A DNA stretch of 64,000 nt from Escherichia phage V18. Positions 8,729 to 39,436 of this stretch are shown one piece after another. The position numbers were made by a program, and so were the translations under genes. A model generated the notes under the pieces. That model searched no databases. It saw nothing but the letters and a program-made list of their open reading frames with translations, and was not told where the DNA came from. Numbering within the stretch: position 1 is the stretch's first letter; each line of letters opens with the position of its first letter. The stretch lies in sequence record NC_041937.1. One strand, given 5' to 3'.

Positions 8729-9712
8729 ATGCTAAAACTGTGCACTGCAAAGATTATTGCTGACAGCATTTCCGAGAAAGGTAAGCGTATCACCACTTTT
8801 GAACTAGAGTATCCTCGAATTATTCACTCAGAGCTTATGACGCACCGAGTGTTCAGCCGAAACGCCATGTCTTCCCGTGCAGTACCTGTCGGCAAGATGC
8901 TGCAACAGATTGTGGAGAATCCGGCAATGCCAGTTCGCTTCGGTGTAAATAAGCGAGGAATGGAAGATGGTGGGGAACACGATCAAAAGATCCGTGTAGA
9001 GTACACTGACATGGAGCTAACTCCTGAAGAGTTTTGGAAAGAAGCTGCAAAAAACGCCGCTTGGCATGCAGAGAAGTTCGCCCTTGCTGGTTACCATAAG
9101 CAAGTATGTAACCGCTTAGTGGAGCCGTTCCAGCGCATGAAAACAGTTGTAACAAGCACCGAGTGGAATAATTTTTTCCACCTCCGTTGCTGGCACGATG
9201 CGGATCCTACGATTCAGATGTTAGCTAATTGTATGTGGGAGGCTCTTGAGAATAGCACTCCTGAAATCCTTAAACCGGGTCAATGGCACACCCCATATGT
9301 AGAGCACGTTTATTTGGACGGAGAGTTTAACTACGCTGTACGTGACACAGAAGGAAAGCTTTGCATTCTCGATACTAAAGAAGCTCTGTCTATCAGTGCT
9401 AGTTGCTGTGCACAAGTATCTTATCGAAATATTGACAGCACGTTTGAAAAGGCAGATAGTGTTGCTAAAAAATTGATTGGTGGGGATCGTATTCATGCAA
9501 GCCCTTACGAGCACCAGGCAACACCTATGGATCACGATAATGCAATGGAACGTTTAAACTACTACCTGTCTTCATGTGAAATCACACAAGACATCAGTAC
9601 TTGGCAGGAAGGTGTAACCCATCAAGACCGTGATGGTAAATTCTGGTCTGCCAACTTTTGTGGGTGGGTTCAGCACAGACAACTGCTTAATAACCACTTC
9701 GTGAAAGGTTAA
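8729..9712 (+). CDS. thyX: flavin-dependent thymidylate synthase
   Basis: ThyX signature MTHRVFSRNAMSSRAVP (RHR…S…S.R); 327 aa. Confidence 0.8.
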   Translation: MLKLCTAKIIADSISEKGKRITTFELEYPRIIHSELMTHRVFSRNAMSSRAVPVGKMLQQIVENPAMPVRFGVNKRGMEDGGEHDQKIRVEYTDMELTPEEFWKEAAKNAAWHAEKFALAGYHKQVCNRLVEPFQRMKTVVTSTEWNNFFHLRCWHDADPTIQMLANCMWEALENSTPEILKPGQWHTPYVEHVYLDGEFNYAVRDTEGKLCILDTKEALSISASCCAQVSYRNIDSTFEKADSVAKKLIGGDRIHASPYEHQATPMDHDNAMERLNYYLSSCEITQDISTWQEGVTHQDRDGKFWSANFCGWVQHRQLLNNHFVKG

Positions 9713-9741
9713 TCCTATCACAGCGATAGGTAACTTTTGTG

Positions 9742-29121: not shown

Positions 29122-29427
29122 ATGGCTAAATCTAAAGTTGAACTGTTCACCTCTCTTCCTTCTGACACTGCAGAACGTGATCGCCTTCGCAAAACAATCG
29201 AAGAACTGGTGGAACTCCAGCTTCAGATTAAAGACCTGAAAGATGCCATCAAGGATATCATTCTCGTTGAGAAGCAGGATCATCTATATTCTCCTAAATT
29301 CATCAAATCTCTGGTGGCTACAGAGTTTGATATCCGCTACGAAGCTGAAAAACGTCGCGCTAAGATTGAAGAAGAGGTTGAGCACATGTCTGAGGCAGAC
29401 ATTCTGTTCAAACGCTCTGTAGAATAA
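29122..29427 (+). CDS. hypothetical protein, predicted helical/coiled
   Basis: 101 aa; charged heptad-like sequence; followed by terminator. Confidence 0.4.
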   Translation: MAKSKVELFTSLPSDTAERDRLRKTIEELVELQLQIKDLKDAIKDIILVEKQDHLYSPKFIKSLVATEFDIRYEAEKRRAKIEEEVEHMSEADILFKRSVE

Positions 29428-30796: not shown

Positions 30797-31012
30797 ATGA
30801 AGATAGAAATATTTGGTGGAGCTGACAACACTCGTGGCCTGATTTACCTTGAATTTGATGAATCATACCTGCCAGAGGTGTTAAATATAGACTCTGTTGC
30901 TGAGGCTTTGGGAGTAAACCCTAAAGAACTCCACTCTTGTGCTGAGATCGATGGTTGGGAAGAGACCATGAACATTGATTTCAGTGAAGTGGAGGATGAA
31001 CCGCTAGACTGA
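30797..31012 (+). CDS. small acidic protein, last gene of the plus-strand arm
   Basis: 71 aa; MKIEIFGG…; acidic C-terminus. Confidence 0.4.
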   Translation: MKIEIFGGADNTRGLIYLEFDESYLPEVLNIDSVAEALGVNPKELHSCAEIDGWEETMNIDFSEVEDEPLD

Positions 31013-31362
31013 CGCACAATTAGCTGCCCGGCTAAAGTGCTGGAAGCACCTATAACACATCTTTCAACTAAATTTCCTACCACCACAATCACTTACCTCC
31101 CGCACATGACTGTTTGCTTGTTTAGTGAGCAGTCATGCCTTGACATTCTTGCCTATCCTGATAAAATTAAGTTCTTCTCTTTTCTTTTACCGAGTAATTC
31201 GGGTTTTCTGTTCTCTTCGGTTTGAAGGGGTATGGAGATACACCTGAGTGAACAGGGTGAACAACCGAACCATTAGCTATGGCATTAGCATGGCGAAGCG
31301 GACGGGTGACGAAAGAGGGGCCGGAGGACACCAGTCACTGCCATATGATATATGGGTGATAA

Positions 31363-31902
31363 CCTGAAGAGTCTGAATAAGTGTTTAAGTACCAGTCAGA
31401 GGAAAAGGTGAATGGTAGCCGAAGGGGGGAGGGGGGTTTCTTGTATCTTTAATTTGTATATTATGTATACACTTGTAAACCAATCTAATCTGAATCTGTT
31501 TACCACACAAAGCGGATAGAGACAAATATTGCCTATTAAACTTGAATTATTTATAGAAAATACCACAACACCCCTTAAGTCTTTGATTTACACACAAATC
31601 CTACAGATATTCAACCTCCATATTTAACATACTTGTAACATATTCCATACTCTACCTGTCTGATCAATTTCCCAACTACATTCTCATATTTTCCCTGTCT
31701 GTACTACCCCTGCCCCGCCGGGAGTCCCGTCATATCTGGCTTTCCAGCAAATATCACACCCACAAATATCATTGCCTGAAGAGGGTTTCATCCCATAATA
31801 CCTGCCTTACCTGAAGAGCGCTTCATACACCACGTAAATTTTTTAATTGACCTCCCCCTGCCCCTCCGGAGAGGTTGGCTTTTCCCACACAGACCTGAAG
31901 AG
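31363..31902. repeat. dispersed CCTGAAGAG repeat family in the inter-arm non-coding region
   Basis: Exact 9-mer at 31363-31371, 31775-31783, 31810-31818, 31894-31902; also CCCTGCCCCGCCGGGAG (about 31708) and CCCTGCCCCTCCGGAGAG (about 31853). Confidence 0.5.
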
Positions 31903-32495
31903 TCAGCCAGAAATATCTGAATAGGCCCGATCTGCCCAGTCAGGAGCCAGTAGCGACTGGAGTGCTGCCAGGCGGACGGAATGGGAATACTTCTCATTCT
32001 TATAACAATTCTCAAATATCGAGGCAGTGAGAGAAATTAATAGGCCAGGCCGTTCACACAGTGGCACAACATTTGCAACCTATCCTGTGGGGATGAATGA
32101 GAATACCTATCATTGTGAGAACTATTATCATTACGGGCAATTTAACATAATACCCATTATGCGCACCACTGGCGATACATACAGGGATTGATACCATGAG
32201 TTACAGTTTACACACATAACAATTATATTTCTTACTATTTGTGTGGGATATAGTTAGCAGCCAATAGATTAGATATTGACCTGTAGACTTCCAACCGTCT
32301 GGACGTCTAAACGCCCACACACCAAGGGTTATACATACATCGCTGAATGTAAACAGGGCCGCAAAAATGCTACCATACCAGTTTGTAAATTTTTCATGCA
32401 GCACTTGACAAAGAGGAGAAAAACTTGTCTGACACAATGTCACACAATATGACACTTTACACTGGACACACTAGGCACAAAAAAAAAAAACTGCA

Positions 32496-32720
32496 GTGAC
32501 TAGGTCACCCCTTCAGGTGTTTCTATGACATAATATAAAAGCAGGGCAACTATTACAAATCTAAAGTTGCCTTGCTTGTTATGTCATGATTAACTAAATA
32601 CAAGGCAACTATGATCTGATTAATAGTTTGCAGACAAACTATCACGGGGGTGATGGTTACTGCTTTTATATTATGTCGCGACTCCGTCGCGCCATGCCAT
32701 TCGTTTGCATAGTTGCCTTA
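32496..32720. repeat. iteron-like locus: nested inverted repeats and GGCAACT repeats (candidate origin/operator)
   Basis: Palindrome GTGACTAGGTCAC 32496-32508; 18-bp perfect inverted repeat GACATAATATAAAAGCAG 32527-32544 vs 32660-32677; CAAGGCAACT(T/A) at 32601-32610 (+) and 32564-32574 (-); AAGGCAACTATG at 32602-32613 (+) and 32708-32719 (-). Confidence 0.55.
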
Positions 32721-33370
32721 TTGTTACAGATAAAATAATTGTATTGTTAATTATTTCTTATCTTTCTATTAGTCATCTAATGATTCCAGTTAGTATAGTA
32801 ACGTATAGTAAACATTAGACGACTAAATATTTCTCTGTTTATGATAACTCACCGTAATAATTTCGGACTGTTTACGAAAAATGTTGACACCCTGGCTGAT
32901 TTATGTTATGCAATTTAAACGAATAATTATTTTATGCAGGTATTGACTATTCCGTTATTCTATGGTTGGAATAAATACTTAGCAGGCTATAGAATGGTGA
33001 GCGTACGTAAATTCTGAGATCTGTCGGCTATAGTTATACCCGATTTTTCACGTAGAACACGCTTTCGATGCTGTGTAAGTGTATGACTTATAAAGATTTT
33101 TAGTTGTTGACAAGATATTGGAGATGTGCATCAGGTTAAAATTTGTGCAATAGCGGCATTACGTGCACTTTTGGGAGAGAAAACGGGTAAAAATGGACTT
33201 GCTACCACACAATGAAAAATTATGCAATAGCTATTTTACATGTATGTTTGTACAGTGCGGGCAATTGATGGCTCGTCAATTATTCCACTTGCCAGGTAGG
33301 GCCGTTTATGGTAGGGGGAAGAGCAGACAAAAAGAAAGGGGCCTAAGCCCTTGATAATTCAGTTAAAAAA

Positions 33371-33790
33371 TTATAATGATTCGTATATTTCAAAAATCCG
33401 ATTTGCCAGGTCGTTACGGTAGCGGAATTTTTCCTCACGTTTGATCATCAGATCTTTAAAGCCATATTCTTTAAGCACTTCATTAACTTTATGGCGGCAC
33501 ACCTTCATATTATCTTGAGCGTCACCAATAAACTTGTTGCTGTGGTGCATTGCTTTAATTTCTTCTTCCAGGACCAGGGCAACTACCCGGACCGGATCAA
33601 GCTGGTAGGCGGTAACATCGATGCGGCATTGTAGACGGCTTTTAACGTCTGCCACCGGATATACTGCAACCTCTTCCCCGTCAACATTGACAATAACTAG
33701 TTTACCATCGATCTCGAATCCTTTCGCCGCCGGACCGTGACAAAAAGCGTTATCAAAGCTATATGCCGGATTATTAGATTTAATGTTCAT
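33371..33790 (-). CDS. hypothetical protein, first gene of the minus-strand arm
   Basis: 139-aa ORF; hairpin GGGGCC-taa-GCCC at about 33330-33350 downstream. Confidence 0.4.
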   Translation of the reverse strand: MNIKSNNPAYSFDNAFCHGPAAKGFEIDGKLVIVNVDGEEVAVYPVADVKSRLQCRIDVTAYQLDPVRVVALVLEEEIKAMHHSNKFIGDAQDNMKVCRHKVNEVLKEYGFKDLMIKREEKFRYRNDLANRIFEIYESL

Positions 33791-39043: not shown

Positions 39044-39436
39044 TTACAGTGTTTTCATGGCTGTAATGGCTGTACTTGTCGCGTTCAACACTGGCTGATA
39101 ACTCGCATCGTGCATTGTGCCGAACAAGTGACGAATTGATCGGAACTTGGTCAGGGCCCTTACTTTACGCAAAAATTTTTCTAAATCCACGTTTTCAGCA
39201 CTGATTGAAGCGCCGTCACCCTGGCACCAAAAGCCGGACCAATGTACTTCGGTATCTTCAAGGCCGTACTCTGGAAAGATATATTCTTTGTAGTGTTCAA
39301 TTACACTTTCTGCAAAAAAGTCATCCCCGCTGCGTTCTTCTCTTTCGCGGACCATTTCAATGGCTTTTTCTTTTTGTTCGTCGGTCAGCACGTCGAAAGA
39401 TAAATTGCAACCTGTAGTAATGTTAACGGTAGTCAT
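39044..39436 (-). CDS. hypothetical protein
   Basis: 130 aa; conserved 5'-leader hairpin CGGGAAGTTTTCCCG at 39466-39480 and promoter-like TTGACA-N16-TATACT (minus) at about 39493-39522. Confidence 0.4.
   Translation of the reverse strand: MTTVNITTGCNLSFDVLTDEQKEKAIEMVREREERSGDDFFAESVIEHYKEYIFPEYGLEDTEVHWSGFWCQGDGASISAENVDLEKFLRKVRALTKFRSIRHLFGTMHDASYQPVLNATSTAITAMKTL

Follow-up and report, generated by a model that had tools for sequence, protein, structure and literature searches.

Beside the site of the physical genome ends of Escherichia phage V18, within a 64,000-nucleotide stretch of its genome (NC_041937.1; this whole stretch is hereafter the window), lies a non-coding element that is closed by a perfect 18-bp inverted repeat. 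Elements of the same architecture occupy the same position in other genera of the Vequintavirinae, and compensatory changes across these genera indicate that pairing of the element with itself is under selection. We tentatively propose, with a probability of about 0.35, that the element acts in cis as folded DNA at concatemer junctions, either in the regeneration of the direct terminal repeat (DTR) and the maturation of genome ends or in packaging. The window derives from an rV5-like Escherichia phage (Vequintavirus) and is 94–96% identical to the JohannBauhin, RudolfGeigy and rV5_ev phages, among others.

The locus was first picked out in a reading of the sequence alone, and the repeats described there are exact. 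The arms GACATAATATAAAAGCAG and CTGCTTTTATATTATGTC match over 18 of 18 positions (32527–32544 / 32660–32677) with 115 nt between them, the 12-nt inverted pair AAGGCAACTATG (32602–32613 / 32708–32719) is perfect, and six copies of the GGCAACT core, here lettered a to f, were located in both orientations. Chance does not account for this density: all three exact copies of GGCAACTAT in the window fall within 173 bp, compared with ~0.5 expected window-wide, and the 18-mer arm occurs only as this pair, with 0.13 occurrences expected even if 3 mismatches are allowed. The motifs of the element have no further occurrence in the 64 kb. A stretch of 206 nt folds with z-scores of −7.6 to −8.0 on either strand, whether treated as RNA or as DNA. 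The parts that define the element are as follows.

32527–32544, + strand: left arm of the closing stem (P1), GACATAATATAAAAGCAG; 100% identical in 19 of 20 aligned relatives.
32637–32660, + strand: hairpin AACTATCAC-GGGG-GTGATGGTT, followed by a conserved GTTAC that abuts the right arm (alignment, profile).
32660–32677, + strand: right arm of P1, CTGCTTTTATATTATGTC (repeat search, alignment, profile).
32678–32695, + strand: GC-rich box, consisting of the hairpin GCGAC-TCC-GTCGC and then GCCAT (alignment, profile).

The gap that contains this element also holds the physical ends of the genome. In the HdK5 record the first 459 nt are identical to the last 459 nt, and both map to positions 31971–32429 of the window; the independently deposited records of HdK5, bov10K2 and YN3 all begin exactly at the equivalent of 31971, and in CM1 the unit was assembled twice in tandem. 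Published DTRs of Vequintaviruses measure 458–459 bp, with a fixed packaging start. The window, with its one DTR copy, thus represents the circularised or concatemer-junction form. Because the DTR maps to 31971–32429, the element lies just inside the left end of virion DNA: the locus as first delimited (32496 onwards) starts 67 bp past the right end of the DTR, and the left arm 97 bp past it. This adjacency to a physical genome end, the decisive context, had escaped the sequence-only reading. The boundaries also carry conserved signatures. In Klebsiella phage KPP-1 (Mydovirus), for which a DTR of 514 bp was mapped experimentally by coverage and PhageTerm, the published DTR start (record position 116316) is the base homologous to the left cut of the window, the two together giving GCYA^GRCGGAC, and the right DTR end shares TTTGTAAATTT-N11-CTTGACAA with that of the window. 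The DTR and its signatures lie as follows.

31966–31977, + strand: left boundary signature TGCCA^GGCGGAC, cut before 31971 (alignment with KPP-1).
31971–32429, no strand assigned: DTR unit of 459 bp (HdK5 ends, record starts, published lengths).
32140–32166, + strand: DTR-internal island ATTTAACATAA.AC.C.TTAT.CGCAC, conserved across the subfamily.
32382–32429, + strand: right-end signature TTTGTAAATTT-N11-CTTGACAA-GAGGAGAAAAACTTGTC, which ends at the DTR boundary (alignments).

The 459-bp DTR contains no consistently annotated gene. To its left, genes lie on the + strand, with the last open reading frame ending at 31012; to the right of the element they lie on the − strand, beginning with the open reading frame at 33371–33790. 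The two arms therefore converge on a non-coding gap of 2.36 kb (31013–33370), and the description of the locus as the meeting point of two divergent arms was mistaken, as genes on both sides are transcribed towards it. The genes that flank the gap are small hypothetical open reading frames. Cumulative GC skew reaches its maximum at the gap, the polarity of a terminus or convergence point; the authors of the rV5 genome paper ascribed the change in skew to the switch in transcription and drew the gap merely as a grey ‘non-coding’ box. KPP-1 has the same convergent gene layout.

Using the DTR-internal island as an anchor, together with the right-end signature, a pattern search of IMG/VR retrieved 22 further loci (27 pattern matches in all), which probably correspond to CR3, PVP-SE1, Hena1, Av-05-like, BIS47, Ro1 and other phages. 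The element occurs at the same position in Mydovirus, Seunavirus/PVP-SE1, Certrevirus/CR3, Av-05-like and Erwinia phages. All 16 Vequintavirinae-type sequences with enough downstream sequence (the window and 15 loci) have a perfect inverted repeat of 18–22 nt with a spacer of 71–204 nt, placed 360–680 nt after the island; measured from the DTR, the element lies about 70–330 bp to the right across genera. In KPP-1, for example, a perfect 21-nt inverted repeat stands ~310 bp to the right of the DTR, with 164 nt and nested hairpins between its arms. None of the 23 sequences (the window and the 22 loci) has an inverted repeat of more than 11 nt to the left of the DTR.

The sequences of the arms differ between genera and their complementarity does not. 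At least eight arm sequences occur: GACATAATATAAAAGCAG; (AG)CGACACAATAACAC followed by GGGAG, GAGGG, GAGAG or TAGGG; GACACAATAACGCAGTAG; GACACTATAACACGAGAG; GACCAATAGAAAACAGGT(A); GACCAATAGAAAAGGGTAA; CCGCCATAGTCAGTTATGGAG; and AGCCACCTATAAACGCTGATAG. The left arm of the window is thus replaced in other genera by different yet self-complementary arms, and among Mydovirus phages the inner bases of the arm take several forms (GGGAG, GAGGG, GAGAG, TAGGG), each matched by compensation in the partner arm. P1 has no mismatches and no G·T pairs at any locus, and such strict Watson–Crick pairing fits a requirement that acts on both strands or at the level of DNA. The arms are bracketed by conserved sequence: GTTAC adjoins the right arm on its inner side, and in all genera that arm is followed by a GC-rich box (...CGCGCCAC). 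In the window and in the CR3 type this box folds into a small hairpin, one pair of which has changed with compensation (GCGCC/GGCGC in the CR3 type).

Seven sequences (five Mydovirus, PVP-SE1 and Hena1) were aligned to analyse covariation. Their consensus fold is four-way: the long closing stem P1, a hairpin P2 that abuts the left arm, a long-range helix P3 (GTGTTATCGTGGC / GCCACGATAACGC) and a terminal hairpin P4, with 96.1% of cells paired. Changes on both sides of a pair affect 16 of 62 pairs, compared with 5.7 ± 1.6 in shuffles (0 of 500 reaching this number) and 1–5 in slid controls. In P4, unrelated sequences substitute for one another with pairing retained; the sequence of P3 is invariant across three genera. 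These compensatory changes across genera argue that intramolecular pairing is what selection maintains.

The window has every feature of this DTR-adjacent element: a perfect inverted repeat, a structured spacer, GTTAC and the GC box, all to the right of the DTR. Its homology to the CR3 type follows from a profile of the right-hand module built from Certrevirus only, for which window positions 32645–32698 are the sole significant match in 64 kb (E = 1.1 × 10−4; next match, E = 1.6). The same profile gave no significant match to Mydovirus-type loci, and a mixed-genus profile of the right arm, in which the alignment was out of register, gave no match in the window; a relation to the Mydovirus type is suggested by the architecture and by short motifs. 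No strand could be assigned from folding energy. The + strand folds better in 14 of 14 elements, but the spacers are rich in G+T and shuffled + strands are equally favoured; after correction for shuffles, the advantage of the + strand is −1.2 kcal/mol, seen in 10 of 14 elements.

Conservation among relatives had been proposed as a check on the locus, and it is found. The element is present in 116 of the 118 Vequintavirus records that include the right flank and is 95–99% identical in 106 of these 116, with the adjacent 310 bp mostly at 90–95%. Alignment of the window with 20 relatives shows that a block of ~195 bp (32525–32720) is near-invariant, with 0.5–2% mismatch compared with 4–15% in the flanking non-coding DNA. 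From the DTR rightwards, the relatives have an array of ~10-bp TGACAYAAT repeats, in most cases an array of 15–16-bp repeats, a first copy (A) of the 20-mer CCATGCCATTCGTTTGCAT, a variable linker, the near-invariant block and a second copy (B) of the 20-mer. The arrays range from 0 to about 12 copies, and the window has neither the 15–16-bp array nor the left 20-mer copy A.

How exact terminal repeats are generated is acknowledged to be poorly understood. We propose that the element works by folding on itself, the perfect 18–22-bp stem P1 closing a region of 71–204 nt that is packed with hairpins, and that at concatemer junctions it would either extrude from the duplex or become accessible in single-stranded form. 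We infer that the folded species is DNA. The proposal fits the strict Watson–Crick pairing of P1, the presence of a conserved GC box directly next to the stem and the constant placement of the element on one side of the DTR. The inverted repeat stands on one side only of the concatemer junction and close to the repeat, as is expected of a T7-type hairpin, and a hairpin end has been proposed as an intermediate in the processing of T7 concatemers (Chung, Nardone & Hinkle 1990). Two routes are conceivable. A nick near the GC box might allow the right arm to snap back onto the left arm as a primer, so that extension leftwards through the arrays and the DTR would supply each daughter genome with its own DTR copy; or the folded element might be a structural landmark that lets a terminase or resolvase cut on the correct side. 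That rV5-like myoviruses regenerate their terminal repeats through the first of these routes, with a telomere-like fold-back primer nicked at the GC box, is a doubtful proposition on its own. If true, it would be an undescribed solution to the duplication of exact DTRs during packaging and would account for the perfect complementarity of the arms.

Several observations weigh against this proposal. The spacer of 71–204 nt is unfavourable for spontaneous extrusion of a cruciform, and a single-stranded intermediate must therefore be assumed. The covariation is compatible with DNA and RNA alike. T7 has nothing comparable, its longest perfect inverted repeat near the junction being 8–9 nt. In the window itself the first hairpin is damaged and neighbouring arrays are missing. 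The record of FV3 (NC_019517; 1561–1683) is without the whole element: everything between two 20-bp direct repeats is gone, and the record has no long inverted repeat elsewhere. Either the deletion is natural or a hairpin-rich segment was lost during cloning or assembly; should the FV3 record be right, the element cannot be strictly essential. In favour of the proposal, a HIDEN-SEQ preprint reports that a saturated transposon library of Bas54 (Vequintavirinae) had no insertions in an intergenic region of ~2 kb between oppositely transcribed genes, the one intergenic region to tolerate none; its authors considered it functionally important without assigning a function. From that description and from the gene numbering in Bas53 and Bas57, we infer that the region is the gap described here; the insertion-free stretch spans the whole 2-kb gap, including the DTR.

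Of the possibilities raised in the sequence-only reading (a replication origin, a divergent-promoter operator or a structured RNA), a structured nucleic acid comes closest. A role at the level of RNA is the alternative that deserves most weight, although we consider it improbable rather than likely. The element would then be a non-coding RNA or, in read-through transcripts of the converging arms, a processing or barrier signal, with a duplex of ~20 bp that is cut by RNase III or stalls RNA polymerase and so keeps transcription off the packaging site and limits antisense RNA on concatemers. The folds are very strong on both strands (z about −8), the paired positions covary, and P1, being perfectly Watson–Crick, would form in RNA copied from one strand or the other. 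At 31140–31167 a near-consensus + strand promoter (TTGACA-16-TAAAAT with TG) is aimed at the DTR and the element, a terminator-like site on the − strand lies between the left arm and the DTR in the window, KPP-1 and PVP-SE1, and the bidirectional terminators that the rV5 authors expected between genes 163 and 164 were not found by them. In contrast, a search of Rfam 15 gave 0 matches at the gathering score in the window, with chance-level scores only (E = 2.9 in the gap; E = 0.44 among five other loci), and no match in any genus examined. The part of the RNA suggestion that holds is thus the selected pairing, not membership of a known family. Long RNA helices usually tolerate G·U pairs, of which P1 has none, and from genus to genus neither promoters nor U-tract terminators keep a consistent place around the element. 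The right arm of the genome already has a good terminator at 33352–33336, 650 nt upstream of the element, and a mere insulator need not keep a fixed side of the DTR or a conserved GC box. In the window, terminator-like sites lie at 32637–32658 (+) and 32509–32495 (−), the T12 of the latter being private to this phage; in most genera P1 itself has no U-tract. The arms were also considered as a promoter, with TGACATAAT as an extended −10, and rejected: this sequence is not conserved in the arms of other genera, and there is no −35.

An origin of replication, or a site at which a folded single strand recruits a T7-like primase-helicase near the genome end, we regard as unlikely. The locus is non-coding, rich in repeats and hairpins and followed by an AT-rich tract, tandem arrays of 15–16 bp adjoin it in relatives, and the corresponding region of Bas54 is intolerant of insertions. 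The right arm ends in (G/T)(G/T)GTC in most groups, which we take to resemble T7-type primase recognition sites. Against this, both gene arms point at the locus and forks would run head-on into all transcription, cumulative skew has the polarity of a terminus, and the DnaA box TTWTNCACA is absent from 31013–33370 and from all 16 elements. The specific suggestion of an iteron origin fails on the same skew and missing boxes and on the repeats themselves: the GGCAACT copies alternate in orientation (+ − + − + −), only TGACACAATA is tandem (2.6 copies), and the arrays are dispensable, being absent in the window and variable elsewhere. No initiator gene was identified, and no homology search was aimed at initiators. 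Still less probable is a signal for ejection or end handling like the injection stop of T5, at which proteins of the host or the phage would bind while the leading DNA is entering the cell. Nested repeats and palindromes do stand at the inner edge of the terminal repeat, as in T5, and the 18-nt motif AAATGAGAATCATTCCGC is common to the T5 injection stop region (iss) and Mydovirus DTRs; that motif lies inside the DTR, however, not in the element, the paired DnaA boxes of T5 are absent, and a 459-bp DTR without pre-early genes leaves a T5-style two-step transfer nothing to express. The mechanism is not settled in T5 itself, and protein binding would leave compensatory changes along arms of 18–22 nt unexplained. 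We give equally little credence to a cluster of symmetric duplex sites, operators or iterons bound without folding by a phage protein such as the small terminase. Several copies of two motif families (TGACAYAAT and GGCAACTAT) are present in alternating orientation, with palindromes at ~10-bp spacers, the arm-core motif of each of various other genera is repeated there too, and the invariance of P3 across three genera would suit such sites. Yet complementarity spans the full 18–22 nt; it includes inner positions that the remaining motif copies do not share and at which close relatives differ, always with exact compensation. P4 is exchanged for unrelated sequences with pairing kept, and the 64 kb contain no further copies of the motifs. 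The divergent-promoter operator proposed at the outset is contradicted by the convergent arms, by the restriction of the motifs to this one place in 64 kb and by the lack of a strong flanking promoter pair. A selfish insertion resembling a miniature inverted-repeat transposable element, without function for the phage, is largely refuted already and has very little probability left. Perfect terminal inverted repeats, a clean presence/absence polymorphism at 20-bp direct repeats and near-identity among Vequintavirus genomes might suggest one, but the element is single-copy in each genome, has no target-site duplication (2–10 bp) at its arms and has no copy in 5,426 E. coli genomes, the sole plasmid match being a whole phage genome; in at least six genera it keeps the same position and architecture with diverged, co-varying sequence.

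The remaining features in and around the element of this phage are as follows.

32430–32455, + strand: tandem array TGACACAATA, 2.6 copies, directly next to the DTR; relatives differ strongly in its copy number and sequence.
32479–32508, − strand: A12 tract plus palindrome GTGACTAGGTCAC, a private deletion junction.
32539–32577, + strand: first internal hairpin, GGCAACT copies a and b (repeat search, 20-relative alignment).
32579–32587, + strand: segment M, TTATGTCAT, complementary to the outer left arm (repeat search, folding).
32601–32642, + strand: GGCAACTAT-type copies c, d and e, with palindromes c/d and d/e (repeat search).
32691–32710, + strand: 20-mer CCATGCCATTCGTTTGCAT, copy B (relatives alignment).
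32708–32719, − strand: outermost GGCAACTAT copy f, partner of c in an alternative fold and retained in FV3.

The GGCAACT copies lie at 32545 (a, +), 32604 (c, +) and 32709 (f, −), with b at 32563–32573 (−) and two degenerate copies at about 32621 (d, −) and 32634 (e, +). Alternative pairings are available to several parts: copy c can pair with b or with f, and the b/c pairing is a perfect 18 nt at locus L027, and segment M offers an alternative to the pairing of left and right arms, in a topology of left arm, hairpin and M that is also found in KPP-1. The TGACAYAAT motif of the TGACACAATA array is the outer part of the long arms. The A12 tract (32479–32490) and the palindrome (32496–32508) noted in the sequence-only reading are present, but only this phage has A12 and a palindrome of exactly this form, at a site that is a deletion relative to 19 of 20 relatives; on the − strand they resemble an intrinsic terminator (a hairpin followed by T12). 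The first internal hairpin of this phage has three private changes; it departs from every relative in the loop and at one stem pair, and has lost a GATC. Regulation by Dam was considered and set aside: GATC stands at ~2 times expectation in most elements, is reduced in the window and is absent at locus L037. Beyond the element, the GC content falls to 23–27% at 32700–32820. In rV5, LL12, C9 and A135, a 33-bp insertion (TTAACATCCTCGAGACGAAGGCTATGCCTGAGT) follows the equivalent of position 32577 in the spacer and leaves the arms undisturbed; YP-6 has a similar sequence in the linker instead.

The DTRs themselves share motifs beyond the subfamily. Palindromic motifs of the type AATGAGAAT(C)ATT occur in Vequintavirinae DTRs (window ~32096–32135, with AATGAGAAT at about 32096; KPP-1 locus ~2410–2470), and the same type is the repeat unit of the T5 injection stop region (T5 record 9587–9720). 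The 18-nt identity AAATGAGAATCATTCCGC links Mydovirus DTRs with the T5 iss, and CR3-type DTRs share 15–17 nt with it. The AATGAGAAT-type motif is one base off what we take to be half of a Fur box (GATAATCATTATC). Two of the IMG/VR contigs matched by the DTR-island pattern (L035 and L045; 261,806 and 43,922 bp) are unrelated: two perfect DnaA boxes (TTATCCACA) directly follow the island, short repeats of the ACACTATAC type are many, and there is no long inverted repeat. They may represent a different phage group with a related terminal sequence.

A second non-coding block, to the left of the DTR (31140–31400), is conserved even more than the element (0–0.7% mismatch, 14 relatives). It begins at the + strand promoter-like site, after which comes a hairpin with a T-run at 31190–31202. 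KPP-1 (locus position ~1696) and PVP-SE1 (~4804) have mutually homologous promoter-like blocks upstream of their DTRs, which suggests that in each genus a promoter reads across the concatemer junction; the block is possibly a small RNA or an arrangement like T7 phiOR. The motif CCTGAAG(A/T)GTC occurs three times in the gap to the left of the DTR (31363, 31773 and 31894) and also within the KPP-1 and PVP-SE1 blocks. Neighbouring genes were of little use as anchors. The proteins of an 87-aa neighbour gene in the window and in KPP-1 are unrelated, a 101-aa protein (29122–29427) is conserved across genera and not syntenic, lying 36 kb from the KPP-1 DTR, and a 139-aa neighbour protein as IMG/VR query returned only 3 loci. 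Two sets of database records call for comment. CP057073.1 (pRHB39-C03_2) is listed as a circular ‘plasmid’ of 137,565 bp in E. coli isolated from cattle faeces. It is an entire Vequintavirus genome, in which both the gap and the element of the window recur, and is either a carrier-state or pseudolysogenic phage or a contamination filed as a plasmid. Some ~18–20 ‘Campylobacter phage’ records (MG0656xx, UNVERIFIED) are 94–96% identical to E. coli Vequintaviruses across the gap, and their host assignment is very likely wrong.

We found no description of the element in the literature, including a full-text search for Vequintavirinae with ‘inverted repeat’, and the rV5 paper, the BASEL paper and the HIDEN-SEQ preprint all treat the gap as unannotated. 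It is of a known kind, the cis elements that adjoin terminal repeats in phages (the T7 junction and the T5 iss are examples), but forms a family of its own that is clearly defined by structure and previously undescribed. How T7, T5 and many large myoviruses make two copies of the repeat from the one at each concatemer junction is a long-standing question, and Vequintavirinae are widely used as therapeutic and typing phages. By placing the physical ends in the gap and defining conserved signatures of the cut sites, the analysis provides a discrete, one-sided structural element, supported by covariation, that is open to compensatory mutation designs. In practice, genome engineering, synthetic rebooting and the annotation of start sites should keep the region intact.

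Comparison with known systems places the element between several of them. The T7 junction likewise has short exact direct terminal repeats with fixed ends and short variable arrays that abut the repeat, and a promoter that reads across the junction (phiOR, annotated at 39229), to which the + strand promoter-like site at 31140 is the counterpart here. Fold-back at a one-sided inverted repeat has reportedly been proposed as a way to duplicate the T7 repeat. T7 differs in its terminal repeat of 160 bp, in the use of its own RNA polymerase and in a longest perfect inverted repeat of 8–9 nt within ~800 bp of the junction, where Vequintavirinae have arms of 18–22 nt that close a multi-hairpin domain of 71–204 nt; there is no sequence similarity, and T7 was rejected as a structural homologue because it has no comparable inverted repeat. 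Repeat Region 3 of T5, with the iss, is similar in being considered essential, with an unsettled mechanism, and in a AATGAGAATCATT-type motif that is common to Vequintavirinae DTRs, where the motif lies in the DTR and not in the element. T5 is different in its repeat of about 10 kb, which encodes pre-early genes, in its paired DnaA boxes and in the inverted repeats just beyond its repeat, which are imperfect (77–94%) whereas those of Vequintavirinae are perfect. Iteron origins, plasmid or lambda-like, share clustered short repeats in non-coding DNA with an adjoining AT-rich tract, as well as arrays like the 15–16-bp arrays near the element in relatives; they differ from the alternating orientation, variable or absent arrays, missing DnaA boxes, convergent transcription and terminus-like skew found here. 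Folded signals in single-stranded DNA, such as primosome assembly sites, single-strand initiation signals and integron attC sites, and RNase III sites in phage transcripts (T7 early RNA, lambda sib) depend on pairing, extend over 100–200 nt and contain imperfect sub-hairpins, and their sequence can drift provided that pairing is retained. In its general description, the element is like both of these classes, in that its function would depend on pairing and not on primary sequence.

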